DNA from: Nemertoderma westbladi
Taxonomy: Eukaryota > Animalia > Xenacoelomorpha
Assembly: GCA_032718475.1 (NCBI GenBank)
Contig: JAUCBJ010004241.1
Location: forward strand, 15,619-79,618
DNA: 64,000 nucleotides
Reading direction: 5' to 3'
Shown here: piece after piece, positions 1,783 to 56,513 of the stretch
How positions within the stretch are numbered: the stretch's first letter is position 1
Layout of the letters: each line of letters opens with the position of its first letter
Position numbers and translations under genes: made by a program
The notes under the pieces: generated by a model
Told to the model about the DNA's origin: nothing
Databases searched by the model: none
Seen by the model: only the letters and a program-made list of their open reading frames with translations

Positions 1783-3002
1783 TGTAAAAGCTTTTGTGGA
1801 TATAATCAGTCCCCTTGCCCGCAAAGTACCGTTGTAGGTGTTTTAACGGACATAAAAGTCATTCTTCTATATGTGTGCTTTGGCGGACATGGCAAGGCAC
1901 AAAACCCGCAATGCGTCAAATACTCTAGCACAGTGTAGCCTTGATGATTCAGATTACGACATCTAACAGCTGGTTGCTGGCATGGAAACGGCCATTGGAC
2001 ACATGGTTCTTTGTTTAGCTTAACAGCCAATCAGGGTGATTTTTACTGTCGATGTGGAGATATTCTACAGATCATGCTAGGAGTGTTCAGTCTTACTGTT
2101 TTTTCTTGATACTGTTTTGTTGTTTCTATCTAGGCCAAGAACACCGGCTCTGGAGTCAATTCGTTTCAGACTTTAGAAGAAACATTAGTAGGCTTAGATT
2201 ATAGAACGTATAACTGTTATCGGCTCAATCAACACGGCCCAATTATTAGCGCAGTAGCGCAGCGGTACAATCTTATATTGTTATAATCTTAACCTACCGT
2301 CTTAATGCTTTTTACTGTTGTTATTATTTGTATCAGTTGGTTGAATATTATTATTTGGAGAACATCTATAAAGAACCCAAATTTCCCAATTTTCTTGATA
2401 CACTACAGGTTAGAGAGACAGGTTACATATAGCGATTGCGACTTATATTATCGTGGTTTGTAGTGAGTTTAATGCTATTTGATAGGCACTACATGAGTCA
2501 ATTGCTGTTCTCTTTATATATGATAAAATTCATTGACGGTCGGCAGATTAGTGTGCAGTATTGTGTGGTACCGGTAGTGTGCATGATTGTGGCTGATAAC
2601 TAAGCATTTCCTAAAGAATGCGCCTCATACGTGAATCATAAGCCTTACAGTCTTACAGTTGTGTTTAGTATAAGTCATATCTCTGTTTATCTAGATAGAG
2701 CGCCACGTCCTAAAGGAACTGTTAATATTTCCCGAAAGTGAATAATATTAGTCAGGAATTATTTATTAATGATCAATCGAATAATACAGTAGGCTTCACT
2801 GCAATAATAAAATCTAAGCCCCATCCGAATCCAGTCTCCCGGGTATATCCAGCGGGTGAATGGACGCGCACTAGGCTGGCTTCGGCTAATGTTGTGTTTA
2901 TTGGTATTAAATACTTGTCATTTACTAAAAGTCTATTTATAAACCAAAAGACATATAAATTTTAGCAGGTTAAACTGCTAAAGGTCTTCAAAAGCGCGTA
3001 CA
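1783..3002 (+). repeat. 5' LTR of element 1 (1220 bp)
   Basis: Starts TGTAAAAGCTTTTG, ends AAAAGCGCGTACA; near-identical to 12918-14134. Confidence 0.97.
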
Positions 3003-3013
3003 ATAACAGTTAT
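3003..3013 (+). promoter_or_regulatory. Non-canonical primer-binding site of element 1 (ATAACAGTTAT), candidate self-priming PBS
   Basis: Abuts the LTR terminal CA, lacks the TGG of tRNA PBSs, exact reverse complement of ATAACTGTTAT at 2210-2220 in the LTR. Confidence 0.65.
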
Positions 3014-3067
3014 TGTCTTTATTGCAGTAAGCAATAAAGTTGAAAGTACTGATCGACCGGTAAACCT

Positions 3068-3229
3068 GAACCGGTACTGCTGTAGGTCCGTAGGCCCAAC
3101 TGCCAGAACCGGTACTGCTGTAGGTCTGTAGGCCCAACTGCCAGAACCGGTACTGCTGTAGGTCCGTAGGCCTAACTGCCTGAACCGGTACTGCTGTAGG
3201 TCTGTAGGCCCAACTGTCCTAACCGGTAC
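3068..3229. repeat. 38-bp tandem repeat (~4 copies) in 5' leader of element 1
   Basis: GAACCGGTACTGCTGTAGGTCYGTAGGCCYAACTGCC repeated at 38-bp period. Confidence 0.9.
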
Positions 3230-3399
3230 TTCCAGTATAAGTACATTAGTATTATTCGATTTTGATTATTGTATACCGGTAGGTCTTAGTATTTAATCAG
3301 GGACTGCAGCCCTGGTTTTTTATTGAGATTTTACTTATTTCTGTCGGTTTTATTTACATGTAAGTTAATATTGAGCTGAAGACGTGTAAGTCTGCTCAG

Positions 3400-3985
3400 A
3401 TTGTTCAGATAATTGTAGGCTGGACTGTTGTCTGACTGTTGTTGGGTCTGGAGAGATTGCGGTGCGTGTGGAGTTTGTCCGATAAAGTGCCAGTTAGTAA
3501 GTTGGGGCAGCCAGAGCTGTAAGGTCAATCCCCTCTTAAAGAATAAGTCGTACTACCGTGTTAGAACGCATACTAACTAACCATTTTGGAATCTGCATAT
3601 ACTGTAGTTTATTTAGGCTTGATAGTAGTCTGCCAGCGTTTTAGCCTGTGTTTGTTTGTGTGGTCTGTTCAGGTACCGTAATAGTTATTACTCAGATATT
3701 TTGTAGGCTGGATTGTTGTCTAGCTATTATTAGGTCTGAAGAGATTGCTGCGTGTGTAGAGTTTGTCTGATAAAGTGCCAGTTAGTAAGTTGGGGCAGCC
3801 AGAGCTGTAAGGTCAATCCCCTCTTAAAGAATAAGTCGTACTACCGTGTTAGAACGCATACTAACTAACCATTTTGGAATCTGCACATACTGTAGTTTAT
3901 TTAGGCTTGGCGGTAGTCTGCCAGCGTTTGGTTTGTATTTTGTTTGAGTATTCTGTACGGGTAGCGTAATATTTATTATTCAGAG
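3400..3985. repeat. ~288-bp tandem duplication in 5' leader of element 1
   Basis: GATAAAGTGCCAGTTAGTAAGTTGGGGCAG at 3481 and 3769; single copy in element 2; ends approximate. Confidence 0.85.
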
Positions 3986-4981
3986 TTTATGCGATTATTC
4001 GCAACATTCATGTCCCCAAGTTTATTCCTACAGTAATTGTGCTTGTTACACATACCGTTATAGTTAAATTAACCCCGGTACTACACGGGCTGCTTGGCGT
4101 AGGTAAAGACTGGTGACTTTGTGCTCCGGTCACTCCAGCAGATGCCGTGGTTCTTTTAACTGTTCAAGTATATTTAACTGCTAGTTATCTGTTTTTAATA
4201 AGTACTTGTACCTAATTTAGGGTTTGGTGTACAGTGCTTTCCGAAAGTAATTAGTGTGTAGGCAGTGTATTGTGTTGTAAAGTGGTTAATAGGCACGTAT
4301 CGTAAGTAATTTGTAGTATTAAGTAACTTAGGTAAATTAGAATTATCTGTTTTAGTGTCCAATAAGTAGCACTTCACTGAGAGCGCACAGCTTCTGTGTA
4401 GTGACTCCCCCCAGAAATAATAACATTTATTTCAAATATAGACAAAACCCATTTTAAACGGGTATATATATATTATAAATCAACTCAAACGATTTATAAA
4501 TAGTAGGCCTGCCATACAACAACTAGGTCTCAATATCAGTTGGACTACTGCTTAAATAACGGTAATAAAGTAACTTAAAGTAACTAAGTAACCTTTAAAA
4601 TTCAGAAATTCAATTATTTAAATAATTGATATACCGGTATTTACGATAGGCCTATTACCTTTATTTCTATAAATTTAGGCTGAAATTATACCGGTATTCT
4701 GTAATTAATTCTAGTCCAGAATTACAATTATATACTATAAGTGTCAGCTGTATACCGGTATTCACGATAGGCCTATTATATATTTATATATATTTGTGCT
4801 AAAATTATATACCGGTACTCTGTGACAAAACTAGTTTACAATACTTCTATATATTATAAGTGTATACCGGTATTCTAATATACTGTAATAAATTACCGGT
4901 ACTAGGCCAACGGTCATACTGAATTACTAGACTTGCTTTAACTGTAACTATAGCAGTAAGCATTCAACTGTATAGCTAAGC

Positions 4982-7900
4982 ATGTCTGACACTAAGCAAA
5001 ACCTGTCAGACAGTCTAATCGATACAACCATCTGTGACACAGATAGGAGTGTGGAGCGATTAAGAAAAGGGTTCAGCTCACCTCCTACTGAAAGAAAGGT
5101 CATCCCTCCAGTAGTAGTATCAGACCCTAGGCTAATCCAACACCGTAGGTCTATCATCGGTACTCGGGCCCAGGTCAAACGGAACCAAGAAGCAGCTGTC
5201 CAACAGCAGCAACATCTTAGTCAAGAAACTCGTTCCCAGCGACCCGATAGCTCCAGTAGTTCGGATACTGTAGAGCTGACCCCCGAACGCGGAGTGAAGA
5301 TGGCGGTTACAGCCTATTCAGATCCCCTTCTCACCCTTCCTGCCGCAGTACTAACTACTATATTGATTGCGGTGGAGGAACACCAAGGCGATTGGGCGAG
5401 AAGTAAGCGAGCGACCCAAGATAGTTATGCGGGATACGCCAGGGAAGAATTGATGTCTATTGTCGAGTCACAATGGAACTTTCCCGGACCCGGACTCCCG
5501 TTAGATTTGTCCGAAGCTACTTGGGAAGACATACACAGGATGGGAGTGACTAAAGATACGATGGATCCAGCTGTTTGGAAGAGGTCGGCAGCAGGATATG
5601 TGCAGGGATTCTTCGGCTCCTTAGAGCGATTAGAAGAACAACTGTTTCGACAACCCCAAGGACCTCAAGAGCAGGAAGAGCTGCTATATCAAGTACGCGA
5701 AAGAACCCTACGCATTAGACTAATCCTATCAGCCTTTGAGGAAACTTCCAAAAGAAGACAGGACACGTCGCTGCAAGTTGCTGTCAAGACTTGGTTCCAG
5801 CGGGTAGGTCTCAAAGTACAAGAAACGGCCCAGTGGAAATCCCAGCTGTCTGAGCGACCAACCTATGAAGAATCAACCGATGCCACCTTTTCTCAAGTGG
5901 AAAGCGAAGTGACCGCAGAGAGACCGCGAACGAGAGACGCCATAGACATCTATCTGTCAGACTATCAACGTTTCCTAGGTGATGAAGAGTTGAGGAGACG
6001 ACTGGCTGGACTTCGCCCCAATAGTGAAGGAGCCAAGCTTGTGTTGGACTCAATCGATACGGAAATGTTAGCTGCAAACCAAGCTAAATTTGATGAAAAA
6101 CTCCGCCTCGCTAGAGTCCAAGAAGAACAAGTAAAGAAAAAACGGATAGAGGAACGAAAGGCAGCAGCAGTAGCAGCGGCAATGGCAGAAGCAGAAGTGG
6201 AAAGAAAGGCGGCAGCGGCAAAGGCAGAAGCAGAAGCGAAAAGAAAGGCGGCAATGGCAGAAGCAGAAGCGGAAAGAAAGGCGGCAAAGGCAGTGGCAGA
6301 AGCAGAACGGAGAGCGTCTGAGGAGACTACCCAACTGGAGTTGGAAAATCTGCAAGAGACGCAAGACTGCATAAATAAACAGTTAACTGCTAGTCAAATG
6401 CAGATGATGAGTCGATCTACTCCCAAACGCCAAGGATACACATCATCGGAGGAAGGCGAGACCACCGATCCTGAAGGCGGAGGAAATAGATCTCGTCTAA
6501 GCAGGCGTAGAAAAACATCTCACCGTCACAAATTGCCTGATTTGCCCCCCAGCGGTTAGAAGACAACTAGCTAGCACAGACTTAGGTAGTACAGAACCCA
6601 CAGACCAAATTATTAAGGTCAAAAGACTCCCTATGATAGTTGATGAGCCTGAAATAATTGGGCCTGTCGTTCCCAAAGCCACTCCTGTGCTAGAGACCCC
6701 TGTACTTCCAGAGCTTAACTCTAAATTCCCTCTACACAGTACTACACTGCCTGTACCCGGTAGAACAGTCCATGCGAATATCCCTGTCCTGGACACTGAG
6801 AGAGAAATCAAAGATTTGTCTCCCGTCGTCCCGCATCGGCCCGCTACAATGTTGGCGACTCCCGCTTCGGCGGTTGAGTGGGTAGAGGAGGGACGGCGGG
6901 GGATGAATCTCCTGCTCGGACAGATGCAGGAGACTGTCCACCAACTTAAGGGAACAGTAAGGGAAAGTAGGGCAGAATTGCAAGAAGTGCAGCAAAGTAT
7001 CGCGCTAGAACGCGACAAATTAGTCAATATACAAAAGGGTATACCAATACCCCCAGTAACATTGTGTCAACCTGTTAGGTCTGAAGTATTACATGCGCAA
7101 GGCGTGGAGCCTACACGCATCTATACTGCTAGTGAAGTAGAAACTCCTATAGCAAACCCTATTAAGGGTGATTATAAACCTGTTGTTAATGATATTCCCT
7201 ATAGACCTGATAATAATCCGATAAATTTATATACCGATAATTCGATATTAAATAATACGATGGCCCAAGAAAGCTTTACGCGTCAGATGGCTAGAACAGA
7301 AGCCCGCCAAGCGGTCAAAGTGGGAGAGATCGTCAAATTCAATGGAGATGAGATGAAATGGTTACCTTTCAATGAATATTACAAAGATAGCATACAGAAC
7401 TCTGTACTATCTAATGGAGAGAAACTTAGATTCCTCATCAAGTGCTTGGAAGGACCTCCCAAGTTAATGGCGTTAAAGTTTATTGGACATCCAGATGGAT
7501 TAAGACAAGTTTGGGATACATTAAACATCAGGTATGGTAACAAGGATAACATAGCTAAGTATTTGTATGCAAAATTAGTAGCCCCCCGAAACTTCCTTAG
7601 TAGCGGGATTATAGAGTTTTCCGATGAGATTCAGGAGATCTGTAGACAATTGGACTGGTTAGGTAAGTCTCATGAATATCAGAGTTCCATGGTTATTGGA
7701 GCCGTAGTCTCTACTTTACCAAAGGGTGGAGTATGTACACGCTGGGACAAGAAAGTGTTGTATATGAATGAGCAGCAACGACGAGGCCCTACCATGGCTG
7801 ATCTCATGTCCTTCTTAGATAGTGAAGTAAAATTACAACTCATAAAGCAGTCCAGAGAGAAAACATCGGAAAATAAGGTAAGTGAGAAACCCGTTTCTAG

Positions 7901-9602
7901 GAGAAGGGTAACACCAGTGTGTTATACTGACGACGGCAAAAGCCAAGCTTCTCAAGAAGAGGACAGCGGGAAAGACACAGCAAAATCTTACTATGACAAC
8001 AAGACCTATAAAGACGTAAGTAAATATAAGTCTCGAACCAGTGACAGGAGAGAACAGGTAACAACAACTCCTCCTACGTCTCCTAAGAGAATTCACGGAA
8101 GAAAGCCCGAAGAAAGAACGAGAGTGCATAACGTTACCCAAGGTAAAGTGAGTAACATCAAACCAAAATGTGCGCTGTGCGACGGGCCCCACCGTTTGAG
8201 TGCGTGTGCTGAATTCCTAAAGAAATCCCTTGTAGGCAGACGTGAAGTCATGTGGGATAAGCGGTTATGCTATAATTGCCTCAGATCAGGACACCAACGG
8301 CGAACCTGTTACTCCGACGTAAAGTGTGCAAAGTGCGGTGCGAAACATCACATCTTGTTACACAGTGAATTCGAACGAAACAACCCGAGTCAGGTAAGTG
8401 AGCCCGAACTACATGTCCAATTCAGTGATGTAAATGACAGTGATCAAGAATCTGAGATGGAAGGATTCTATACGGACGAATTCTCCGACACCAACGAATC
8501 CTGTTACCTAATAAATACCGCAGTGTATCGAGCACTTACGTATGAAAAGGACACCGACAATGAGTTCCCCCCAACTACCTTTGACAGACAACCATCTTGG
8601 AAACCTCCAACTTCCAACGTAGGAATCAGAGAATTTCCTGTAGTGCAGGTAAGAGTTCACGGTCCTAACAAAAGTTACATAGTGAACGCCCTCCTTGACT
8701 CCGGCAGCACAGGAACATTCATCGATCAAGAACTAGCCGAAGACATCTTTGCTGGACAACCCAAGTTCCAAACTAAGTTGAATATGTCCGGAATTATGCA
8801 GGTTTGGAAATCTACCATAACGGCAGATTACTATGTAGGTGCGTTGTCCACCCCCCAGGATAAATTAGGAGCACAAAGTATAAGGTCAGTAAAACTGGTG
8901 GCTATAAAGAACCTCGCTACTACCCAAGTAGAACCTTATAACTGGGACGAGGACGAGAGCATCCAACTGCTTAAGATACCTCGATTCCAGACCGATTATC
9001 CTGGAGTGCAAATACTCATCGGCCAAAACGCGCATGAGGCGCTCGAGACATTGGAGAAACGGCCTGCTCAACCGCAGCCACTACAAACCTATGCGGTAAG
9101 AACTAGAGTAGGTTGGTACTTCACTGGCCCTTCCCATAGAACTCTCAAAGAGAGATTACCTCAACAACAGGTATACCAAGTAAAGGAATGGGAAGTGGAG
9201 AGCAGTGATGTGGACGATCCAACTGAGGGAACACCATACTCCTCAGATAATGACGATATTAACTCCTATGTAGATCAATGGAGACATTGCCTTGGGACGA
9301 TTAATCCAGCCGACATCGCTTCCAGAGGAGCAACTCCTCAAGAACTGATAGATACTCCAGGCTGGTTAGGTGGATCCGACTTCTTAAGTAAAGAAGAAGT
9401 AGAATGGCCTCCTCATCTTACCACGGCGGAGATTAGACAGGCCAAGGGAGCGGAGAAAGTAACACAACAACTCAATCGCCCAGCTGGTCGTTTATGTTTA
9501 CTGGAAAGAGACCGAAAACTGTCCGGAAACTATGGAAGGCAAGATACTCTTCCTACGACCACTTCCCTAATCCGACAAATATCTAGGGACTCCATAACGT
9601 AA
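4982..9602 (+). pseudogene. Gag-protease polyprotein of element 1 with pol deleted (frameshift near 6550)
   Basis: ORFs 4982-6559 and 6633-9602; DUF1759-like IVKFNGDEMKWLPF; triple zinc knuckle CALCDGPHRLSAC / CYNCLRSGHQRRTC / CAKCGAKHHILLH typical of BEL/Pao; protease ALLDSGS; RNase H remnant NPADIASRG; C6 versus C5 run relative to element 2 causes the frameshift. Confidence 0.92.
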
Positions 9603-11246
9603 TCACATATGGAGTGGGCGTGTGACTATATCATTTTATATTTGTTTTTATTTTATATTTATGTATGTATTATTATGTAATTTTATTATAATCGTTTTCT
9701 TTAATTTTATTTAGTAGAATGTTATTTTAGTGATTATTTAGTAGATTAGTGCAATATATTAGTGTTTATTACGTACGTAATTACTTATAATATATATTTA
9801 GTGCGACGGCGAGAAATAATTATTTTTCTCTTTCCTTACTGTCCGTATTATATTATAAACACGAGACTACAGTAAGATGACATGTCAGTACTTATTAAAG
9901 TACAATAAAGCTCCTACTATATTTAAGTATTATTGGTAGGCAGAGTATTAGGAATGCAAAGTTCAGATCCTCGTGTCTCGGCTAAACCAAGCTCTGGGTA
10001 GACCTTGGAAACGACTTGCCTCTTCACACTGACATTGCTTCGTGCGATATTGCTCTTCTACTTTATATTAAATAATACATATAGTAACGTGATGTCCCTA
10101 TAACAGTAGCTTAAAACGCAAATAAATTTTTTGACCTTTTGACCTTTTGAACTTTTGACCATCTGTAATTCTAGTCGATTAAGATATCGCGGCACCCACC
10201 GATATACTTGAAAGACAAATTCTAGAATCAGTGGTTAACGTCCCCAGACAAGTTCTGGAATAAATCGGTGCCCATCTTAAATATTAATTTAATATTTATT
10301 AAAATCTGTAAAATTCAGTTCCTTTAAAATTTCTAGTCAATTAAGATATCGCAGCATTTACCGATACTCTTAAAAGACAATTTTACAGAATTAAGGATCC
10401 TAGGTCCCCAGACATGCTCTGGAATAAAATTGTGTCAATTTTACCATCAAATAATAAAATTCACGGGAATAAATTTAAATTCATATCTTAAATGAATTTC
10501 ATAAATTGTCATTTGTGCAATTTATAACATTCCCAAAATTCCATTAATTAATAGATCATGGGAGCGGAGATTCATCCTATTGAGTGTATTAGAGTGCGAG
10601 AATCTCCAACATATAGTCAATATCCGATAAAATTAATAAAATCATACATAAAGAGGATATTGACAATGAAAGAATTACTATTAAATAGCATTCCAGATCT
10701 GTATGCATGAGAATTACCCTAATTCTACCGCTAGCTTTCCATAATGTCACCATAGCAACACCCACGCTAGAATTAGAAGCAAGTTAAAAGAACAATAGAA
10801 AGCTTGTCCCATTGCATAGCACAGAGAATACATAGCACACTGTTAGTATCCAAGGATACACAGTAATAACGTGACATTCTGGAAGGCACTGACTAACGGA
10901 CAAATGGCCTGTATGTGTACAATTGGTGACAGTTGTGTGGAATTTGTGCGTTTATAGGTGAATGTTACTGCTAAAGTATGTTTACAGTAGCTAGTCGCAA
11001 TTGTGAAAGTAGCCCAACTCTCCTATAGAAAGAACCTAAAGTGGATTCAAGCCTTTGGGACGGACAGTGGAGTGACTTGTGCCGGTTATCGTTGTCGTGC
11101 TGTTGCTACATGTTGGCGTAAACACCGCGACGACGGTACATCGGCGCTGAGAATCCCACTGTCCGGGGGCAAAGAAAGGGTAGGCAGCGACGCCCGCTCG
11201 CCTAAACATAAACTCCTTATAATATTAATAAACCCAAATAGCAGAT

Positions 11247-12839
11247 ATGACGGAGTTGATAGAAGATGATCTTGGTATCAGGGAGCGATATACTCTACCT
11301 TTACAAGCATTTGTGGATAGCTTGATACGCGGTGAAGCCGATCCAACCATTACGGAGGACGATGGTCATTATATCGAACCGCCGATGTCCCAAGAGCAAC
11401 TTACGCGTGAATTGGACTATCGAAAATTCACCGCTCGCTATACGCATCGTAATGGTACGTATATGGACTTCTTAACTACCGGCCATCCTATCGACTTGCA
11501 TAATACGGACGATGTAGACACCGAAAGGGAAATGGTTCTATTTAAATATCATACCCAGCAGAGTCGTAACGATAAACCGAGAATAGAACACGAAAATTCT
11601 ATTCGTAACAGACTGGAAAGAGAAAACGTTGAAGAACCGGATAAACGCATCGACTTCAACGACTACCTGGAATTTTTGGGAGAAACCTATCTCAACATTG
11701 CCAGTCAGCAGAACCTCGAGACTCTATATCCTCAAGGTATACATCATGACCCCATGGTAGAACTCAAACGGCTCTATTTCACTATGATGTATCTTACCGC
11801 CGATCGTCCACTACCTGTTATCCCGGATAGTTTTGAACAAATGGAAGAATATTGCAAAGCTGGAGAACGATCACCCGCGTTTCCTCTACAGGACGTACGT
11901 CTTTGGTATTATTGTGACGAATGCCCTAGACCCAACCCACAAACTGAAGGACACAAACGTCCGCTGTTCCTATTTCCACGAACAACCGGCGATGGAAATT
12001 TATTGTGCATATTGCAGACTCAATAACTTGCATATTTTTGCGGTTTGCCCTCAATTTATGACTCAATGTCACCATTGTCAACTAAAGGGACACGCCAGTT
12101 TCGATTGCCCTTTTAATCACGATTTGGAAAGCGTAGATGAAATGATTACACTACGTTACATCAGAGCTTGGGAAGCGAACGCTGATTTACATTGTGATTC
12201 GCGCCATCGCTATTATCCTGGACGCGCTTACGAAGGAGTTTATGCGTTCCATCCTTACCTATTCGCTTCTGTCGAACAGAAATCACGCATATCGAGTTAC
12301 GAACTACTAAAGCGCGTCGGAGAATGTATTTCAACCAAGTTCGTACGCAAATTTCTCAGGAGTGTTAATCCTAGCGACCTTCATTCATATAACCTAATCA
12401 ATTTTATCCGTCAGGATCCGGACTATGGAGACTTATTTGTTAACTCACACCCCGAGTTACAGGAAGTATATCGACGGCCTACGAATACCGAGCCCGCGAA
12501 CGCGAGTTGGAAAGAACCATTAAACCCAGGAAGTTTCTGACTGCCTATGGTCCACCCACGGCTCTCGTTCAGACCACTCGTAAAGGACCCGTAAGAGCGG
12601 CCGTCCTAAAACGCGCTCTCAAGGCCGTTAGACCCCTCTCCCCCGATGTTGATGTCAATCAACCCGGCACTTCGACTGGCGGATACACCGACCATAATCC
12701 TACACCCTCTGATGCAATCATATTGCACCCTTCACCCAGGAGTTATAGCCCTCCTTGTAAAGTGGCTCGCCCCAAAGAGAAAAAGACTCTGGCCAGCTTT
12801 AAAAAACTGCGTAAACGCCGTCCGCGCAAGAAAGACTAA
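11247..12839 (+). pseudogene. Accessory ORF of element 1, internally deleted (~2.65 kb lost near 11960) and frameshifted
   Basis: ORFs 11247-12026, 11833-12540 and 12507-12839 match the N- and C-termini of 52184-56436. Confidence 0.9.
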
Positions 12840-12909
12840 CTGTTTAGAGTATTTACGTATATTAGAAACTGTGATTTTTGTATATTTATAGACTTGAATC
12901 CCATTTTCT

Positions 12910-12917
12910 GGGAGCGG
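12910..12917 (+). promoter_or_regulatory. Short polypurine tract GGGAGCGG of element 1
   Basis: Purine-rich run directly before the 3' LTR; identical at 56506-56513 in element 2. Confidence 0.7.
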
Positions 12918-14134
12918 TGTAAAAGCTTTTGCGGATATAATCAGTCCCCTTGCCCGCAAAGTACCGTTGTAGGTGTTTTAACGGACATAAAAGTCATTCT
13001 TCTATATGTGTGCTTTGGCGGACATGGCAAGGCACAAAACCCGCAATGCGTCAAATACTCTAGCACAGTGTAGCCTTGATGATTCAGATTACGACATCTA
13101 ACAGCTGGTTGCTGGCATGGAAACGGCCATTGGACACATGGTTCTTTGTTTAGCTTAACAGCCAATCAGGGCGATTTTTACTGTCGATGTGGAGATATTC
13201 TATAGATCGTGCTAGGAGTGTTCAGTCTTACTGTTTTTTCTTGATACTGTTTTGTTGTTTCTATCTAGGCCAAGAACACCGGCTCTGGAGTCAATTCGTT
13301 TCAGACTTTAGAAGAAACATTAGTAGGCTTAGATTATAGAACGTATAACTGTTATCGGCTCAATCAACACGGCCCAATTAATAGCGCAGTAGCGCAGCGG
13401 TACAATCTTATATTGTTATAATCTTAACCTACCGTCTTAATGCTTTTTACTGTTGTTATTATTTGTATCAGTTGGTTGAATATTATTATTTGGAGAACAT
13501 CTATAAAGAACCCAAATTTCCCAATTTTCTTGATACACTACAGGTTAGAGAGACAGGTTACATATAGCGATTGCGACTTATATTATCGTGGTTTGTAGTG
13601 AGTTTAATGCTATTTGATAGGCACTACATGAGTCAATTGCTGTTCTCTTTATATATGATAAAATTCATTGACGGTCGGCAGATTAGTGTGCAGTATTGTG
13701 TGGTACCGGTAGTGTGCATGATTGTGGCTGATAACTAAGCATTTCCTAAAGAATGCGCCTCATACGTGAATCATAAGCCTTACAGTCTTACAGTTGTGTT
13801 TAGTATAAGTCATATCTCTGTTTATCTAGATAGAGCGCCACGTCCTAAAGGAACTGTTAATATTTCCCGAAAGTGAATAATATTGGTCAGAAATTATTTA
13901 TTAACGATCAATCGAATAATACAGTAAGCTTACACTGCAATAACAATCTAAGCCCATCCGAATCCAGTCTCCCGGGTATATCCAGCGGGTGAATGGACGC
14001 GCACTAGGCTGGCTTCGGCTAATGTTGTGTTTATTGGTATTAAATATTTGTCATTTACTAAAGTCTATTTATAAACCAAAAGACATATAAATTTTGGCAG
14101 GTTAAACTGCTAAAGGTCTTCAAAAGCGCGTACA
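12918..14134 (+). repeat. 3' LTR of element 1 (1217 bp)
   Basis: Direct repeat of 1783-3002 followed by TSD ACGTT. Confidence 0.97.
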
Positions 14135-16828
14135 ACGTTTTCTTCTCAGAGTGTCCTTCTCCAGCACTATTGTCTACTATAACCATGTTGGTTACTTTGG
14201 TTTAATTCAACGTTTTCTTCTCAGAGCGTCCCTCTCCAGCACTATTGTCTACTATAACCATGTTGGTTACTTTGGTTTAATTCAACGTTTTCTTCTCAGA
14301 GTGTCCCTCTCCAGCACTATTGTCTACTATTACTTTGGTTTAATTCAACGTTTTATTCCCAGAGTGTCCCTGTACAGCACTATTGTCTACTATAACCATG
14401 TTGGTTACTTTGGTTTAATTCAACGTTTTCTTCTCAGAGTGTCCCTCTCCAGCACTATTGTCTACTATAACCATGTTGGTTACTTTGGTTTAATTCAACG
14501 TTTTCTTCTCAGAGTGTCCCTCTCCAGCACTATTGTCTACTATAACCATGTTGGTTATGGTTACTTTGGTTTAATTCAACGTTTTCTTCTCAGAGTGTCC
14601 CTCTCCAGCACTATTGTCTACTATAACCATGTTGGTTACTTTGGTTTAATTCAACGTTTTCTTCTCAGAGTGTCCCTCTCCAGCACTATTGTCTACTATA
14701 ACCATGTTGGTTACTTTGGTTTAATTCAACGTTTTTTTCTCAGAGTGTCCCTCTCCAGCACTATTGTCTACTATAACCATGTTGGTTACTTTGGTTTAAT
14801 TCAACGTTCTCTTCTCAGAGTGTCCCTCTCCAGCACTATTGTCTACTATAACCATGTTGGTTACTTTGGTTTAATTCAACGTTTTCTTCTCAGAGTGTCC
14901 CTCTCCAGCACTATTGTCTACTATAACCATGTTGGTTTCTTTGGTTTAATTCAACGTCTTCTTCTCAGAGTGTCCCTCTCCAGCACTATTGTCTACTATA
15001 ACCATGTTGGTTACTTTGGTTTAATTCAACGTTTTCTTCTCAGAGTGTCCCTCTCCAGCACTATTGTCTACTATAACCATGTTGGTTACTTTGGTTTAAT
15101 TCAACGTTTTCTTCTCAGAGTGTCCCTCTCCAGCACTATTGTCTACTATAACCATGTTGGTTACTTTGGTTTAATTCAACGTTTTCTTCTCAGAGTGTCC
15201 CTCTCCAGCACTATTGTCTACTATAACCATGTTGGTTACTTTGGTTTAATTCAACGGTTTCTTCTCAGAGTGTCCCTCTCCAGCACTATTGTCTACTATA
15301 ACCATGTTGGTTACTTTGGTTTAATTCAACGTTTTCTTCTCAGAGTGTCCCTCTCCAGCACTATTGTCTACTATAACCATGTTGGTTACTTTGGTTTAAT
15401 TCAACGTTTTCTTCTCAGAGTGTCCCTCTCCAGCACTATTGTCTACTATAACCATGTTGGTTTCTTTGGTTTAATTCAACGTTTTCTTCTCAGAGTGTCC
15501 CTCTCCAGCACTATTGTCTACTATAACCATGTTGGTTACTTTGGTTTAATTCAACGTTTTCTTCTCAGAGTGTCCCTCTCCAGCACTATTGTCTACTATA
15601 ACCATGTTGGTTACTTTGGTTTAATTCAACGTTTTCTTCTCAGAGTGTCCCTCTCCAGCACTATTGTCTACTATAACCATGTTGGTTACTTTGGTTTAAT
15701 TCAACGTTTTCTTCTCAGAGTGTCCCTCTCCAGCACTATTGTCTACTATAACCATGTTGGTTACTTTGGTTTAATTCAACGTTTTCTTCTCAGAGTGTCC
15801 CTCTCCAGCACTATTGTCTACTATAACCATGATGGTTACTTTGGTTTAATTCAACGTTTTCTTCTCAGAGTGTCCCTCTCCAGCACTATTGTCTACTATA
15901 ACCATGTTGGTTACTTTGGTTTAATTCAACGTTTTCTTCCCAGAGTGTCCCTGTACAGCACTATTGTCTACTATAACCATGTTGGTTACTTTGGTTTAAT
16001 TCAACGTTTTCTTCTCAGAGTGTCCCTCTCCAGCACTATTGTCTACTATAACCATGTTGGTTACTTTGGTTTAATTCAACGTTTTCTTCTCAGAGTGTCC
16101 CTCTCCAGCACTATTGTCTACTATAACCATGTTGGTTATGGTTACTTTGGTTTAATTCAACGTTTTCTTCTCAGAGTGTCCCTCTCCAGCACTATTGTCT
16201 ACTATAACCATGTTGGTTACTTTGGTTTAATTCAACGTTTTCTTCTCAGAGTGTCCCTCTCCAGCACTATTGTCTACTATAACCATGTTGGTTACTTTGG
16301 TTTAATTCAACGTTTTCTTCTCAGAGTGTCCCTCTCCAGCACTATTGTCTACTATAACCATGTTGGTTACTTTGGTTTAATTCAACGTTTTCTTCTCAGA
16401 GTGTCCCTCTCCAGCACTATTGTCTACTATAACCATGTTGGTTACTTTGGTTTAATTCAACGTTTTCTTCTCAGAGTGTCCCTCTCCAGCACTATTGTCT
16501 ACTATAACCATGTTGGTTATGGTTACTTTGGTTTAATTCAACGTTTTCTTCTCAGAGTGTCCCTCTCCAGCACTATTGTCTACTATAACCATGTTGGTTA
16601 CTTTGGTTTAATTCAACGTTTTCTTCTCAGAGTGTCCCTCTCCAGCACTATTGTCTACTATAACCATGTTGGTTACTTTGGTTTAATTCAACGTTTTCTT
16701 CTCAGAGTGTCCCTCTCCAGCACTATTGTCTACTATAACCATGTTGGTTACTTTGGTTTAATTCAACGTTTTCTTCTCAGAGTGTCCCTCTCCAGCACTA
16801 TTGTCTACTATAACCATGTTGGTTTCTT
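14135..16828. repeat. 75-bp tandem satellite, right part (~36 units), intronic in greatwall
   Basis: Same unit as 1-1782, resumes in register after the TSD; ends about 40 bp before a TTTTAG acceptor. Confidence 0.97.
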
Positions 16829-18083: not shown

Positions 18084-18422
18084 AACTCACTAACATTGTT
18101 TTGTCACTTTCATACAAATGGTATTTCTGTGACGATGGATTGTGACTTATAATGATTGTTTTTGTTTAGATTATTATACATTTAATATTTATTACTCTAA
18201 ATATAAATTTTAGTGGGAAATTAACATAATTTATAAAATATGTATCTTTTTACGGTGGGTGAGACTGTTTTATGAGGATCCAGTTGCTTAGGTTTCAGAC
18301 ACACCATGGGAGTTAGACAGTTAGACACGTTACCGATGCGCCCGCTACAGGTAGACCACTAATTACTTTCATTTTCCAGACAATCTGAATGCTGTCATAT
18401 ATAATTGGCCCTAATGCCTGTA

Positions 18423-20597
18423 CACCATGTCCTGGAATAGTGTCGTTATTCAGGTACCTGCCCCCCCCCCCCCCCAAATTTTTCAACAAATCTTAATTAG
18501 ATTGCATGAAATTTGAAACAGATATAGTTTCACCTCCCTCCTCCTCCGTGGGTGAGCCAGAAGTTTTATTTTTGCTTTCAATCTTTAGCTACAAGCGTTT
18601 AAAAAAGGTGCCTCCGATAATATTTCACCAGTTACATCGCAGTTATTCTTCAACCTTATAGTGATTTGTTGGTACTGATGGAAAGCTGGCCATGTAAAGA
18701 TTCCAAATATGTAACATAATCTGAATTTCGTTGAAAAATAGCTATGAAATAAAATAAATATGAGTGTTCAAAAGTAGCATGGTTTTGCATCTGCATGAGG
18801 CTATTTTATTCTATTAAATAAAAATACCATATTCTAGAACATTTTGTTTTTTTTATGAATAGCTACGTAATAGTATAATTTAAGAGGTAATTGCATTGTT
18901 GCCCAGCTGCGTATGGAATAAAAAAAATGTTCTAGAATATGGTACATTAATTATGTAAAAGCTTCTGTGGGATGTAACTGGCCCTTCGCCCCGCAACCCA
19001 GTTTTTCCCCCATACGCTAAAATACTCTGAAACCTACTGTAAAGGTTTTTCTGGGATATGACTGATTTGTTTTCTTTGCTAACCAGTTCCCCCCTCCAAG
19101 GCGTTGGAATCCTTTAGGAGGAATCTGAGCTGTTCGATTGGCCAGCCGGCTTGGGAAGGTTGCCCCAGTTACCCATAGCCCTGCGTTGAGTAGTTCTGAT
19201 TTCGACCAATCCCGAGCTACTGAACTGAAATTATCCTGTCTCACTGCTGATTACATGTGTTGAACGGGATTCTTGGAAAATAAGAGAGCTAAAGTCACGG
19301 GACTTTTGTTATGATTTTTATGATTTTGAGACTTTATTATCAGTGTTTTAAGACCGTGTTGAAATAGCGAAATGTTTTCTGCCTTTTTATAAGAACATTA
19401 GTAGGCTAAATTATAGAAAGCATAGCTATTATCGGTTCAATTCGCTATTAATGATTCATATCATTTTAATTCATTGATCTCATTACTTGCAATCTAATTG
19501 TATCTTAACCTACCGTCATACTGCTTTTACTGTTTGTAATTTTGTATCAGTATAATTGGATGTTATTAGTTGAAGAATATCAATAATCAACCCGCATTTT
19601 CCCAATATCCTTGATACACTACAGGTTAGAGAGAAGGGTTATGTACAACAATTGCGACTTTATTATTGTGTTTGTAGTGAATCTAATGTTGTTTGACAGA
19701 CACTACCTGAGTCCAGTGCATATCTCTTTATACCTGATCAAAGTCAGTAACTGTCGGCATATCAGTGAGCAGTGTTGTGCGTTACCGGTAGCGTGCGTGA
19801 TTGTAAAGTGATTTGGATCTGATAATAAAGCATTCCTAAAGAATGCGCCCTATGCTTGAAATTTAAGCCATATCGTTGTGTGTAATATCAGTCATAACTC
19901 TGTTTACATAGGTAGAGCGCCACGTCCTAAAAGGAACTGCTAATATTTCCCGAAAGTGAATAATATTTGTCAGAGATTATATATTAGTAATCAATCGAAT
20001 AATACAGTAGGCTTGACCGCAAATAAATTTAAGCCCACGAATCCAGTCTCCCGGTGTTATAAACGGGTCATTTGGACGCGCATGGACTGGCTTCGGCTAA
20101 TGTTTTTGGTTTGTTTTGTATTAAATCTTATCATCTTAAAAAAGGCAGATTATCAATAAAGACATATAAATTTCGGCAGGTTAAACTGCTGAAGGTCTAT
20201 AAAAGCGCGTACAAATTACATCGAATAAATGACCTTCATAGGAAGCAAATACATACAACATTCGAATGCCCATATCTCAGCTATTTCCCAACCAAATTCA
20301 AATGTTTTTACATATTTGGAATCCTTGCATGGGCAGCTTTCTATTGGTACCATCACAATAAGGTTGTAGAATGATTGCACTGCGACCTGTGAAATATTGC
20401 CTGAGACACCTTTTTCAAACGCTTGTAGCTAAAGATTGAAAGCAAAAATAAAAATTCTGGCTCACCCAGTAAGGAGGAGGGAGGTGAAACTGTCTCTATT
20501 TCAATTTTCATGCAATCTCATTAAGATTTGTAGAAAAAATGGGGGGGGGGGGGGGGGCAGGTACCTGAATAACGACACTATATTCCAGGACATGGTG
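18423..20597. mobile_element. Long-TIR MITE (TA target, Tc1/mariner-like termini) interrupted by a solo LTR
   Basis: TA-CACCATGTCCTGGAATA ... TATTCCAGGACATGGTG-TA; TIRs of several hundred bp containing poly-C/poly-G; ~910 bp without the LTR. Confidence 0.88.
18954..20213 (+). mobile_element. Solo LTR of a third subfamily of the same BEL/Pao family (1260 bp)
   Basis: TGTAAAAGCTTCTG ... AAAAGCGCGTACA; TSD AATTA at 18949-18953 and 20214-20218; 3' two-thirds homologous to the other LTRs. Confidence 0.93.
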
Positions 20598-20630
20598 TAG
20601 TACCGGTATAGTGAGTGGTACAGGGTGTAG

Positions 20631-20890
20631 TACAGGACATTGCTTTCGCCGTGAGGACCAGCCAGTGCATAATCTTGTACTTTGGCAGCCTCATGGAGTG
20701 AATAAGCATGGTGGACAGCCCATGACTTTCTTGAGACGCATCTTAAAGGACACTGGTCTTGAAGATGCGGATGATCTAGCAAATGTCATGGGTGATAGGG
20801 AGTTGTGGCGGCGCAATTTTGTCAACAAGCCGGCACAGCATTCTTAAAAATGCAGCTGCAATGCATCATGCCGATACTAGTACTAGTACC
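20631..20890 (+). mobile_element. 3' fragment of RTE-like LINE
   Basis: GHCFRREDQPVHNLVLWQP...DTGLE...MGDRELWR C-terminal motif; near-identical to 60426-60650. Confidence 0.75.
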
Positions 20891-20896
20891 GGTATA

Positions 20897-21857
20897 CACC
20901 ATGTCCCAGAATATAGTGTCGTAATTCAGTGACACGCCCCACCCCCCCCCCCCCCCCCCCCCCCTAATTTTTTTACAAATCGTGATGAGATTGCATGAAA
21001 TTTGAAATAGAGACAGTTTCACCTCCCGGCCACTGACTGGGTGAGCCAGAATTTTTATTTTTGCTTTCAATCTTTAGCTACATGCGTTTAAAAAAAGTGT
21101 CTCCAGCGATATTACACCAGTTACACCGCAGTTATTCTTCAACCTTATAGTGATTTGTTGGTACTGATAAAAAGCTGACCGTACAAGGATTCCAAATATG
21201 TAAGAGAATTTGAATTTCGTTGAAAAATAGCGGAGATATGGGCGTTCAAATGTTGCATGGTTATGCACCTGCGCGAGGCTATTTTATTCTATTTAATAAA
21301 TACATCATAATCTCGAATATTTTGTTTATCCAAATACGTAGCTGGGCAACAATGCATTACATCTTTAATTATACTATTATGTAGCTATTCATACATTAAA
21401 AAAATGTTCCAGAATATGGTTTATTTATTAATAGAATAAAATAGCCTCGTGTCGTTGCGAAACGATGCAAAATTTGAACGCTCATATCTCAGCTAATTTT
21501 CAACGAATTCCAAATTGTGTTACATATTTGGAATCCTTGCATGACCAGCTTTCCATTGGTACCAACAAACAGCTATAAGGTAGAAGAATAATTGCGGTGT
21601 AACTGGTGTAATATTGCTTAAATAAATTGGAGATGAGCAAACCCATTGTAATATTGCTGAGAGACACTTTTTTTTAAAGCATGTAGCTAAAGATTGAAAA
21701 CAAAAATAAAAATTCTGGCTCACCCAGTCAGTGGTCGGGAGGTGAAACTATCTCTGTTTCAAATTTCATGCAATCTCAGTACGATTTGTAAAAAAATTAG
21801 GGGGGGGGGGGGGGGGGCAGGTACCTGAATAACGACACTATATTCCAGGACATGGTA
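20897..21857. mobile_element. Second copy of the long-TIR MITE (961 bp), core inverted relative to 18423-20597
   Basis: TA-CACCATGTCCCAGAATATAG ... CTATATTCCAGGACATGGTA-TA; almost fully palindromic. Confidence 0.9.
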
Positions 21858-21989
21858 TATTTAACGATAGTACGCAGCACCATCTGTGTACAATAAACGA
21901 TTGAATCACTATAACATTATAAGCATATATAACATATTATAACATTATTATTCACCCGTCTGGGTCTGTAAAGCGTTTTCGGTGTCGCT

Positions 21990-25716: not shown

Positions 25717-26883
25717 TCAACTGTTTGTCACTGGCCATTGGGGAGGGTCGGCGTCCCTACTCAGTAGCTTTGGGATGGTCGACTGAGCCACCCTAGATCC
25801 TCCTCTAAGGGCCACTGCTACAATCCTACGGAGCTTGGCGAGAACATCAATTATATCCTTCTTGCTAACACCATTGTTAGTAACAGCCCTAAATGAAAAC
25901 TCGTCTACCGCAAGCACTCGAACACAAGGCTGACCGAATTCCCCTTCCACAGAACGTAAACTCTCAACAACCCAATCCACGGTTATCTTTATACCTTTCT
26001 GCAGATGAATTATTAGAATATTTGTCGCTATCGATTCTGTTTTCACATAGATAAATCCAATCATTGTGTCATTGATACCTGCGGCTAGGAATCTAGCGTT
26101 GCTATGATCCTCATGGAGTCGTCTGTAACCTTTAGTAATAGCAACCAATCCAGGCGCCGCAATCACGCCCGCTTGGTTCATCCCTCCCCCAAGTAATTTA
26201 CGCATCCGTCGTCCGTATTCAATAAGCCCCGTAGAACCAACTAACAAACTACCAATAGGCGCTCCTAGACTTTTGCTAAGACTTACCATAACGGAATCGC
26301 AATGCTTTACAACTTCTTTAGGGTCTACACCAAGAGCTACAGCTGCGTTGAAGACCCTTGCGCCGTCCAAATGAACTGGAATGCCATAACTTTGTTTTAT
26401 CCCATTTATTTGATCCATATATTCCAGAGGAAGACACACACCACCGCAGTAGTTTTGTGTATTTTCTAGACAGATTAAGGCGGTTTCAGTGAGTTGATTC
26501 AGTGCCGCATGAGGTTTCTTTATATTACACATTATATCGGATATTCTCAAGGTTCCATCCGGTTGGTTTGCAAGGGGGACAAGTTGGACTCCCGCGATTT
26601 GTGCAGCTGTGCTTGACTCGTGTACGTTTATATGAGATATGCTTCCTACTATCGCCTCAGCGGATGGCCCTTTACAGTAATTCATTATGGCAATCAGATT
26701 TCCCATTCTACCCGCTGGTAGTAACAATGCCGCCTGTTTACCCAGAAGGTCGGCAACCTCTTGCTCCAGACGATTTACGGTATCATCTTCGCTGTAAGAA
26801 TCGTCGCCAACCACGGCGTTAAACATCGCTATTCGCATTTCTTGGCAAGGCTGTGTAACTGTGTCGCTTCGAAGATCGATCAT
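25717..26883 (-). CDS. Low-specificity L-threonine aldolase (THA1/GLY1/LtaE family, PLP-dependent), intronless
   Basis: IDLRSDTVTQP, CLENT, VHLDGAR, SLSKSLGAPIGS (PLP lysine), RKLLGGGM motifs; 388 aa. Confidence 0.93.
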   Translation of the reverse strand: MIDLRSDTVTQPCQEMRIAMFNAVVGDDSYSEDDTVNRLEQEVADLLGKQAALLLPAGRMGNLIAIMNYCKGPSAEAIVGSISHINVHESSTAAQIAGVQLVPLANQPDGTLRISDIMCNIKKPHAALNQLTETALICLENTQNYCGGVCLPLEYMDQINGIKQSYGIPVHLDGARVFNAAVALGVDPKEVVKHCDSVMVSLSKSLGAPIGSLLVGSTGLIEYGRRMRKLLGGGMNQAGVIAAPGLVAITKGYRRLHEDHSNARFLAAGINDTMIGFIYVKTESIATNILIIHLQKGIKITVDWVVESLRSVEGEFGQPCVRVLAVDEFSFRAVTNNGVSKKDIIDVLAKLRRIVAVALRGGSRVAQSTIPKLLSRDADPPQWPVTNS

Positions 26884-26957
26884 TGTCAGCTTATATAATT
26901 AGGATTTTAGTAAGCAAATATCTTACGAAAGTTCAAAATTTGTGCGGCAAGTGTCCC

Positions 26958-28672: not shown

Positions 28673-29218
28673 ACAACATGGTATTATTCACATCATGGCA
28701 TAAAACACGTTTATTAATTTGTAAATTTTTTGGGGGCCTCGAGCCTCTATACATCTGACTGTTGGTTCTCAATTTAAATTTGGTTTTATATTCTACAACA
28801 CTCCTAACTCATATTTATTGTTTTGGTTCCTTTCAACTCGCCTCTGTAACCTAACCTGCTCCTTTACTAACCTGCCCCGTGTAGGAGGCCCCCAAACAGG
28901 ATAATCCCTGTAAATCGTATTTAATACTGTAATATAGACTGATAGACAAAGCCTACTACACAGCTACACACCTACACATAGTATTAATTAATTCTGTAAT
29001 TGTATGGCTAAGGCTGTAAGGCCTATTATTATATCAGCTGATATGGCAGTACTGCAGTACCAGAGTACAGCAGTACTGCAGTATGGTGTATAAAATATGT
29101 AACTTTAGACAGTCGTAGTCCTTAACGTACTGCAGTACTGTAAAAAAAAATCCATTACCGGTAGACGTTATAGGAAGGTAGGACCAACTCTGCAACTGAT
29201 ACGGATCACTACAGCACT

Positions 29219-30130
29219 ATGTCGGTATTATATGAACCCGACGGGGAACATTATGTAATATGTCCGTATGATCCTGTACATCGTATACGTCAGAGTCGCT
29301 GGGCTCCTCATATCAGCAAATGTCGCAGAAACCACCCAAATATTAATTTGGAGGAGTGTCCGTTTAACTCACGACACCTCTTACCGCCAGCAACCTTGAA
29401 ACATCACATAAGTGAATGCAGGGACCGAGTGCAGATAGTAGGTATTCAAGCACGTAATCAATGCGCAGCTAGGCGTAATGGTGGTTGTGAGGCGGGCGTG
29501 ATAGCGGGCGACGCACGGGGTACTCCTGCGGCGGCTATCCGGCTCACGGACGAAGATTGGGAAGCGGAATGTAGCGCTTCTCAGTCCTCGCATAGCGTCG
29601 GGTACTCTAGCGGGTTCCACCAACCCCAGTCTAGCGGGTTCCAACCCCAGTCAAGCGGGTTTCAACCCCAGTCTAGCGGGTTCCAACCCCAGTCTAACGG
29701 GTTCCAACCCCAGTCAAGCGGGTTACAACCCCAGTCTAGCGGGTTTCAACCCCAGTCTAACGGGTTCCAACCCCAGTCTAACGGGTTCCAACCCCAGTCA
29801 AGCGGGTTTCAACCCCAGTCTAGCGGGTTCCAACCCCAGTCTAGCGGGTTTCAACCCCAGTCTTCTGGGTTCCAACCCAAGTCTACCGGGTTCCAACCCC
29901 AGTCTACTGGGTCTGCACCGCAGTATTCCGCAATCGATTCTCGTCCATGCGGGTTGCACCCTCGCGGGGTTGGGTTGGCCTCTATCGGTGGCAGTAATGA
30001 CGGCGTTTCTTCGATTACATCGCTTACCAGTGTACCAAGTGCGCCTATCGGAATGGGCAGAGGAGTAGGACGGCCAGCCAACATGCCACCACCACCTGGA
30101 TTAGGCCGCGGTATAGGTTATATGATATAG
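29219..30130 (+). CDS. GTSF1: GTSF1/Asterix/Cue110-like protein (two CHHC U11-48K-type zinc fingers), intronless
   Basis: CPYDPVH...HISKC and CPFNSRH...HISEC tandem CHHC fingers; acidic DEDWE motif; C-terminal GRG motifs; orthology versus paralogy not resolved. Confidence 0.82.
   Translation: MSVLYEPDGEHYVICPYDPVHRIRQSRWAPHISKCRRNHPNINLEECPFNSRHLLPPATLKHHISECRDRVQIVGIQARNQCAARRNGGCEAGVIAGDARGTPAAAIRLTDEDWEAECSASQSSHSVGYSSGFHQPQSSGFQPQSSGFQPQSSGFQPQSNGFQPQSSGLQPQSSGFQPQSNGFQPQSNGFQPQSSGFQPQSSGFQPQSSGFQPQSSGFQPKSTGFQPQSTGSAPQYSAIDSRPCGLHPRGVGLASIGGSNDGVSSITSLTSVPSAPIGMGRGVGRPANMPPPPGLGRGIGYMI
29621..29914 (+). repeat. Coding 21-bp minisatellite (14 x QPQSSGF) inside the GTSF1-like gene
   Basis: CAACCCCAGTCTAGCGGGTTC units in frame. 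Confidence 0.95.
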
Positions 30131-32469: not shown

Positions 32470-32752
32470 GGTTTTCACTAAAAACCAAGTTGAGAATTTT
32501 AATACAATAAAAAAAACAAATACAGCAATTATGATAATATTGGCCCATGTGAAGAATACCAGACTTTCTGCCGTAATATTTCACTTTGCGGGGGTAATTG
32601 CAAAGTGAAATATTACGGCAGAAAGTCTGGTATTCTTCACATGGGCCAATATTATCATATCTCAAACTCTTTATTGCTGTATTTGTTTTTTTTTTATTGT
32701 ATTAAAATTTAAAAAAAAATTAAAAAAGACTCACCTTGGTTTTTAGTGAAAA
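32470..32752. repeat. Foldback/inverted repeat with perfect 59-bp stem (32531-32589 / 32600-32658); related pieces at 32380-32420 and 34580-34880
   Basis: ATGATAATATTGGCCCATGTGAAGAATACC...CACTTTGC and its exact reverse complement around a 10-nt loop. Confidence 0.85.
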
Positions 32753-32770
32753 CACTATATAAAACACTTA

Positions 32771-33323
32771 CACCATAACCCTTAATACAACAACCATTTT
32801 TAGGGGGTCGGAGCACCCTAAATTTGCTTAATTTGCATATCATATTTAATTTTAATGAAATATATTTTAGCGTTTAAAACTCTCCATCTTGTTTTTTCAT
32901 TACCCATAATTAATATTCTAGAATTGAGTAAAAACATTAGAATTATAGCGATTTACGTCACAAAAATTTACACCTTAGTATTTTGATAATATCTCCGGAA
33001 GTTCTTGGTGAAATCTACAACGGGTTTCATATTCGGAATCTGCAGATGAAGGCGGTTCTAATGATATCTAGATTTCATTCCAAAGACGACAAATAAAGCC
33101 GACGGATGTGGATAAATATTGCGAAATAGACGATTTTTAACGCCTTGTTGTATCGAAATAGCTCATAAATTAAAAACTCCGGCCAGGCCACCAGTAAGAA
33201 AAGGTGTCGATCTATCATCATACCAAATTTCGTAGCATTTTATTGAAATTTGAAAAAAATTAGGGGCGGGGGGGGGGGGGCTCCGACCCCCTAAAAATGG
33301 TTGTTGTATTAAGGGTTATGGGG
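32771..33323. mobile_element. ~550-bp MITE (TA-flanked)
   Basis: TIR CCATAACCCTTAATACAACAACCATTTTTAGGGGGTCGGAGC and reverse complement; truncated inverted relative at 39058-39470. Confidence 0.85.
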
Positions 33324-33328
33324 TAATA

Positions 33329-34505: not shown

Positions 34506-34932
34506 GGTAATACAAATAAATTTACAAAAATAAAAAATCTTCATATATAAAATTCCAATAAAAAGTCGACCGAAAAGTGAAATCCTGATATTCTTGGCCC
34601 ATGTGAAGAATACCAGACATTCTGCCGTTATATTTCACTTTGCACTTAGCCTATCCCCATGTGAAGAATACCAGGTTTTCACCAAAAACACAGGTTACAG
34701 AAGGGCTGAATCTAACCAAAACAATAAACGAATTAGTATATGTACAGGTTATAAGACATAAATAAGCGCTATTAAACACTTAATAAAGATAAATTAAAAA
34801 AAAAAAATCTTCATATATAAAATTCCAATAAAAAGTCTACCAAATAGTGAAATCCTGGTATACTTCACATGGGCGATATATTATTTACTTTGTATTGGTA
34901 CATTAACTGTACCTGTATAAATTAATTTAGTA

Positions 34933-38956: not shown

Positions 38957-39057
38957 AACAAACTAAAATAATGCTCAGTTATCATATATTTATATATTTA
39001 CATTTATTGACTGATTATTAAATGTAAATTGCACCACCAAGAATCTAACAAATAGTA

Positions 39058-56436: not shown

Positions 56437-56513
56437 CTGTTTAGAGTATTTTTATATTTTAGAAACTGTGATTTTTATATTTTATAGAATTAAATCCCAT
56501 TTTCTGGGAGCGG

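Follow-up and report, generated by a model that had tools for sequence, protein, structure and literature searches.

A candidate self-primer within the LTR of BEL/Pao retrotransposons from Nemertoderma westbladi

Two BEL/Pao elements, A and B, in a 64,000-nucleotide stretch of Nemertoderma westbladi DNA (henceforth termed the window) carry no tRNA-type site behind their 5' LTRs and, as their sequences suggest, probably prime minus-strand DNA with their own RNA, a reading to which we assign a probability of roughly three in four. An earlier note on this DNA had proposed such self-priming. The proposal has gained support from flanking RNA duplexes with compensatory changes, from covariation in a third subfamily that agrees by mismatch count, and from self-complementary sites in 12 of 13 related families with both LTR ends; it has lost one of its arguments, a supposed U3/R boundary at the primer motif.

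Element A (1783-14134; features lie on the + strand unless stated otherwise) is an internally deleted BEL/Pao element in which RT is absent and RNase H and integrase are mostly gone. It is inserted in a 75-bp satellite, is flanked by the target-site duplication ACGTT, and has a 5' LTR of 1220 bp with TG..CA termini (1783-3002) that differs from the 3' LTR (12918-14134) by 12 substitutions and 5 gap letters. The satellite itself (1-1783 and 14133-16828) reads as long open frames. Element B (39479-57720; duplication TTAGC) is an 18.2-kb BEL/Pao element containing gag, PR, RT, RNase H, integrase, and an extra 3' coding region, and its LTRs (39479-40698, 1220 bp, and 56514-57720) differ by 8 substitutions in about 1220 nt. 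Since the paired LTRs of A and B differ by only 12 and 8 substitutions over this length, both insertions are recent. A solo LTR, C (18954-20213; duplication AATTA), represents a third subfamily. In A, B, and C, the LTR ends are defined by TG..CA termini together with 5-bp target-site duplications.

The protein-coding content places B in BEL/Pao. Its gag-pol region (42632-50699) comprises DUF1759, zinc knuckles, protease, RT (YMDD), Peptidase_A17, and an integrase with DUF5641; the BEL/Pao-specific domains follow one another as DUF1759, Peptidase_A17, Integrase_H2C2, DUF5641. Coding is broken by a frameshift and stops, with breaks near 45.6 kb and 46.1 kb and at 47991 and 48435, and RNase H-type motifs are seen in the broken pol. 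The best protein matches are BEL/Pao polyproteins of fish, echinoderms, amphioxus, molluscs, and a nemertean; PF05380 occurs in 120 of 120 long homologues among the matches listed, and the nearest proteins share 31-38% identity in the integrase region and up to 46% in RT. The polypurine tract is weak: before the 3' LTR, A and B have an identical purine-rich 8-mer that includes one C. A small inverted repeat precedes this tract and is the same in both elements (12897-12917, 56493-56513).

A comparison with 1.84 billion proteins gave only two weak relatives of the extra coding region of B (52169-56436), which follows the integrase in pieces. Its language-model features suggest an EXD1/RNase D-like (DEDD-type) exonuclease plus a CCHC zinc knuckle (score 0.86), a weak lead to a predicted DEDD-type exonuclease fold with zinc knuckle, and by eye the acidic catalytic positions appear changed. 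For ORF2, no match was found among solved structures, and a single-sequence model reached a pLDDT of 30. Rotifer LTR elements are known to have DEDDy ORF3s, according to the available text of PMC5408684. Elsewhere in the window, a 393-aa ORF in one piece at 25717-26898 (-) has a Beta_elim_lyase (threonine aldolase-like) domain. Between A and B, an ORF at 29174-30130 (+), which we take to be GTSF1-like, combines U11-48K-like CHHC zinc fingers with a 21-bp repeat tail. Dispersed inverted-repeat clusters at 18421-21860, 32530-34651, and 39053-39470 are probably small DNA elements, and C and B each lie in or beside such a cluster. Tandem arrays occupy 36627-38957 (43-bp, 54 copies) and 58105-58653 (54-bp, 10 copies).

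The central observation concerns the block at the PBS position. In A, the 11-mer at 3003-3013 is the exact reverse complement of 2210-2220, the candidate self-primer at LTR position 428-438; in B, the 13-mer at 40699-40711 is that of 39920-39932, a 13-nt motif at LTR position 442-454. The 3' LTRs carry the motif at 13345-13355 (A) and 56944-56954 (B). Both the complementarity and its coordinates as given in the earlier note proved correct, as did its statement that a TGG PBS is missing and that the block abuts the LTR terminal CA: the target-site duplications of A and B fix the LTR ends such that the block lies at offset 0 and no TGG follows. When the LTRs were shuffled with dinucleotide composition kept, the observed match length was reached in 7 of 5000 shuffles for A (11 nt) and in 0 of 5000 for B (13 nt), and internal positions matching the LTR equally well numbered 10 of 9854 in A and 1 of 15754 in B, figures that are not independent because A and B are related. 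The two extra pairs of the 13-nt match in B stem from the PBS side alone. The PBS 11-mer occurs once more in B, at 40766-40776 (+), 67 nt downstream of the first; it belongs to a stretch (40757-40808) that duplicates the final LTR bases and the leader hairpin along with it. No tRNA gene was detected in the 64-kb window, and no Rfam family was found there.

Conservation between A and B sets the motif apart from its surroundings. Identity is 63% over 2161-2206, 100% over 2207-2221, and 38% over 2222-2300, and rises to about 80% only from 2301 on. Motif and PBS 11-mers are each 100% identical between the two elements, while the 37 nt behind the PBS are 41% identical. The motif is thus conserved in both subfamilies, as the earlier note had stated, but it is an island and does not mark the point at which divergent sequence gives way to conserved sequence; with identity falling to 38% directly behind it, the argument for a U3/R boundary at this position fails. 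Folding z-scores behind the motif also reveal no U3/R border (A -2.9, B -0.3, C -0.7), only A being structured.

The motif is an interrupted palindrome, a property that counts against self-priming: motif and PBS amount to one inverted DNA site. Both could accordingly be the same double-stranded palindrome used twice in inverted orientation at the DNA level, as a transcription-factor site or a TATA-like part, with transcription starting downstream and another primer in use. A copy with one mismatch is retained in the 5' leaders of both elements (4420-4430 in A, 42070-42080 in B), the motif overlaps TATAA (2209-2213), its conservation stops right behind, and the palindrome presumably resembles Myb/Ovo-type sites, all of which would suit such a role. 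A DNA-level site would, however, leave the elements without a primer site at the fixed PBS position, and a TATAWAW match at the motif is absent from A, B, and C. Two further observations disfavor such a site: in C, the motif and a partner lying 390 nt downstream are altered together, a sign of RNA pairing and hence of a transcribed motif, and some relatives have self-complementary sites that are not palindromic. A TATA box at -30 was not found in the window elements, which counts against self-priming; among the relatives, one was seen by eye in only 1 of 12. We therefore regard a purely DNA-level role as very unlikely.

Self-priming in Tf1 needs a central primer:PBS duplex together with two duplexes in which PBS-adjacent sequence pairs with LTR sequence downstream of the primer, as described in the available text of PMC10085805 and PMC7175516. 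Candidates for both additional duplexes are present in A and B. The segment 2861-2869 of the A LTR is complementary to the LTR terminus (2994-3002) about 130 nt downstream, which would form a second duplex that ends flush at the PBS and in which B shows an A-U to U-A swap. A third duplex would join the LTR segment 2793-2807, at the AATAAA signal (2806-2811), to the leader (3019-3032), and its counterpart in B would join 40500-40513 to 40717-40730. This leader duplex has 14 pairs in A and 13 of 14 in B, the two elements differing by one compensated pair (U-A to C-G) and one broken pair, and by its coordinates it crosses the primer:PBS helix. The A leader segment 3017-3039 could alternatively form a local 9-bp hairpin instead of pairing with 2793-2807. 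Just upstream of the PBS lies a U5 hairpin (2960-2983) with one compensatory change in C (U-A to C-G). Taken together, the predicted three-duplex layout of A and B fits the 'pretzel' described for Tf1.

Statistical support for these duplexes is uneven. For the leader duplex, 45 of 500 shuffles did as well in A, and 2 and 6 of 500 in the two copies from B; for the terminal duplex, the energy was equalled by 61-152 of 500 shuffles, which is within chance and counts against self-priming. Duplex energies clearly beat shuffles for the leader of B only, and the duplexes of A and B lie at the same places. A covariation score computed on five LTRs was reached by 9 of 500 shuffles, and the number of pairs changed on both sides by 61 of 500, a weak result. 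Helices between U5 and the leader occur in tRNA-primed retroviruses too, and the flanking duplexes alone are for this reason no proof of self-priming.

The central helix itself is predicted with very different confidence in the two elements. When folding starts from the motif, the primer:PBS pairing probability reaches 0.96 in B but only 0.18 in A, where it falls to 0.0 when the whole LTR is folded; at 20 C, the helix is lost from the lowest-energy fold of B, and its probability is still 0.82. The low value in A results from a competing helix, predicted between 2591-2600 and 2216-2225, a segment that covers the motif's 3' half and runs past it. This helix has predicted probabilities of 0.57-0.98 in A and 0.99-1.0 for its core in C, where it is kept by a G-C to A-U change, and this two-sided change suggests that the motif is transcribed. 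The competing helix could itself account for part of the motif's conservation. At the extreme, the motif would be kept to close a long R hairpin, with the PBS match secondary or only regulatory and another RNA as primer. The predictions for A and C and the compensated pair in C would agree with such a function. The hairpin uses, however, only 5-6 of the 11 motif bases and leaves the 5' half and the PBS unexplained, the primer:PBS helix wins in B, and the two structures are compatible as alternative folds of a self-priming RNA. Of the explanations considered here, a motif kept for the hairpin instead of for priming is the one to which we give the least credence.

Variation among family copies was read from contigs of four sequencing runs, including X1, X4, and X5. 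In run X1, the summed contig depth drops from 106,599 in the bin of the motif to 766 one bin further on, and contig joints begin at 39933-39935, right behind the motif of B; the motif is accordingly kept in many copies, which diverge immediately behind it. On the opposite side of the proposed pairing, loose ends with leader-like sequence diverge from PBS position 12 (among the 18 of 25 loose ends listed). One PBS variant departs at position 10, in 11 contigs of X1 and also in X4 and X5; no LTR motif could be tied to it, which counts against self-priming. The variant rows listed (40 of 369) and indel rows (12 of 125) include none at the motif and were not used as evidence; a separate variant table for the PBS region shows no other letters, yet it omits known LTR-end variants too and was not taken to indicate an invariant PBS. 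Contig depth over the LTR block 40397-40500 is about 20-fold that of the motif region, indicating that a much larger and more diverse family has the LTR 3' half in common. The 5' LTR end of B has private changes at 40692 and 40696, one of which breaks the terminal duplex; they are absent from most contigs and from the 3' LTR of B. A 26-nt LTR pattern gave zero matches in metagenome, viral, or genome contigs.

Between A and B, motif and PBS show no covariation, as their 11-mers are identical. Subfamily C, with a motif (19422-19432) that differs from that of A and B at 2 of 11 bases, provides a comparison, albeit an indirect one through a contig. One 302-nt contig from X4 shows the fingerprint of C against B (147 letters with 18 substitutions and 7 gap letters, the next block lying 78 letters on), and the sequence at its loose end is complementary to C 20011-20026. 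Compared with A over 2971-3013, it has 5 differences and no gap. The LTR end of C explains 3 of these, and the complement of the C motif would explain 2, an agreement by count and not by position. The C-type contig hence has the number of mismatches predicted for a compensated PBS, indirect sequence evidence that primer and PBS may covary in C.

To place these elements among their relatives, metagenome contigs were scanned with an RT alignment, and the best 80 of 550 confirmed stretches were analyzed, corresponding to 60 families at 90% nucleotide identity; the same alignment gave zero matches in viral contigs. PBS tests covered 13 families with both LTR ends and 5 families with the LTR start only, after exclusion of loci with unfixable LTR ends (L044, L076, L077, L018, and others). 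A self-complementary PBS of 11-15 nt was found in 12 of the 13 families with both LTR ends, the letters being all different, and the remaining family (L023) has a TGG site of the tRNA type. In one family (L074), the complement is a contiguous 11-mer as in A and B (1 of 300 shuffles). In 11 of the 13 (L004, L006, L048, L050, L062, L070, L047, L065, L028, L064, L037), it spans an LTR intron of 72-186 nt. The intron donors read GTAAG in 10 of these 11 families and GTACG in 1, although the search had required GT only. Shuffles were run for ten families, and eight spliced families were matched by 0-4 of 300; for L028, L064, and L037, one boundary was set by eye, without shuffle. Of the 5 families with the LTR start only, a spliced match emerged in 3 (0 of 100 shuffles), the other two yielding no call. 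A total of 14 families, including L001, L022, and L032, thus have a PBS complementary to an LTR exon-exon junction (10-15 nt), and host splicing would assemble the primer in these, as far as their sequences indicate. Because the PBS letters differ in every family, primer and PBS covary at the family level. A splice-built primer was also considered for A and B and rejected: the best spliced match has 10 nt in A, a result equalled by 37 of 300 shuffles, and 12 nt in B, and in both cases it reuses the motif itself and is shorter than the contiguous match. A regular-expression search for tRNA-type motifs over the loci was dropped, its matches falling mostly within ORFs; L058 and L072 may be of the TGG type.

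Two observations temper the comparison. The primer lies 766-782 nt from the LTR end in the window elements and 71-216 nt in 12 relatives, a 3.5- to 11-fold difference that counts against self-priming, and in an RT tree of 63 relatives, the branch of B is long (1.58) and falls in no starred clade. Lacking a supported placement for B, the relatives support self-priming in A and B by analogy.

These families also bear on the possibility that a host RNA, for instance a half tRNA cut in the anticodon arm, primes A and B and that the LTR match is incidental. The PBS 11-mer is common to A and B, in line with this possibility, and its complement holds a GTT triplet framed like an anticodon loop, which we assume to be tRNA-Asn-like. 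No tRNA gene was detected in the 31 loci scanned out of the 80. A host primer would leave unexplained, however, why the LTR preserves its exact complement as an island, and PBS variants occur among copies. In addition, 12 related families each match their own LTR with different letters. Half-tRNA primers are known in LTR retrotransposons, yet among the plant elements surveyed, the available text of PMC6317226 reports them for Ty1/copia lineages only. Priming by a host RNA is, on this evidence, unlikely.

Self-priming of A and B would resemble that of known systems in some respects and depart from it in others. Tf1 and Tf2 of Schizosaccharomyces pombe, Tj1, Tosmo1-3, Tcry1, and the Tf1/sushi group, which are Ty3/gypsy chromoviruses, have, in the accessible descriptions, an 11-nt self-complementary PBS without tRNA, and the PBS of A and B is likewise complementary to about 11 nt of their own LTR. 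Unlike the Tf1/sushi group, A and B have BEL/Pao proteins, a 1.22-kb LTR, a primer-PBS gap of 770-780 nt, and a palindromic primer; no chromodomain family matched the integrase ORF of B. The window element is likely Tf1-like in priming, stands outside Tf1/sushi, and is BEL/Pao by protein lineage with a variant mode of priming. In the TAR lineage of plant Ty1/copia (Houba, Osr-1) and in Tcn1, self-priming has been predicted from a complement of at least 10 nt between post-LTR and LTR sequence, according to the available text of PMC6317226; A and B show such a complement, and TAR and Tcn1 belong to other superfamilies and hosts. The splice-junction BEL/Pao families share with A and B a non-TGG PBS 0-4 nt behind the LTR and an 11-15 nt complement in their own LTR; they differ in that this complement lies across a GT-AG intron of 72-186 nt and 71-216 nt from the LTR end, whereas it is contiguous and 766-782 nt away in A and B.

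Within BEL/Pao, the ICTV profile of Belpaoviridae describes the group as tRNA-primed, with an 18-nt PBS for tRNA-Arg or tRNA-Gly, and calls its replication poorly understood (PMC8742986). The window elements agree with this profile in their TG..CA LTRs, the order gag-PR-RT-RH-IN, and the presence of DUF1759, Peptidase_A17, and DUF5641 (PMC8742986). They depart from it in the missing 18-nt tRNA-Arg or tRNA-Gly PBS, in size (12.4 kb for A and 18.2 kb for B against 4.2-10 kb, with LTRs of 1.22 kb against 0.2-1.2 kb), perhaps in a weak polypurine tract where the profile gives one of about 10 nt before the 3' LTR, and in the extra 3' coding region of B, which is not recognisably env. Self-priming has been demonstrated for Tf1 and predicted for its gypsy relatives; the available text of PMC6317226, PMC4600332, and PMC3601003 describes it for Tf1/sushi, with Tcn1 and the copia lineage TAR as predicted cases. 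We found no description of it in BEL/Pao in searches of the openly available literature; a term search of the available text of the BEL/Pao papers PMC3118150, PMC554778, and PMC6238403 yielded no discussion of the PBS, and PMC8220671 mentions it only generically in the text available.

Should the elements self-prime as proposed, genomic RNA would start at or upstream of the motif, and the LTR motif would fold back onto the PBS 770-780 nt downstream, with the three duplexes presumably coexisting in a pseudoknotted 'pretzel'. By analogy with Tf1, RNase H from an intact family member would cut behind the motif and free the primer, giving a strong-stop DNA of about 780 nt. The window lineage would then be, by comparison with the metagenome families, an intron-less, long-range form of a priming mode that is built across an LTR intron in most examined relatives. 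We lean slightly towards a still broader view, in which much of BEL/Pao diversity would as a rule prime without tRNA: most examined families would splice an 11-15 nt self-primer from the LTR, while the giant-LTR lineage of the window would rely on an intron-less palindromic primer that bridges 780 nt to its site; the pseudoknot so formed would include the 5' poly(A) signal and alternate with the competing R helix.

The window element would in that case be one variant within a broader pattern, to which primers assembled by splicing also belong. If true, self-priming in BEL/Pao would explain why tRNA-based annotation misses the PBS of such elements, and it would extend this mode of replication to a third LTR superfamily, likely by independent origin.
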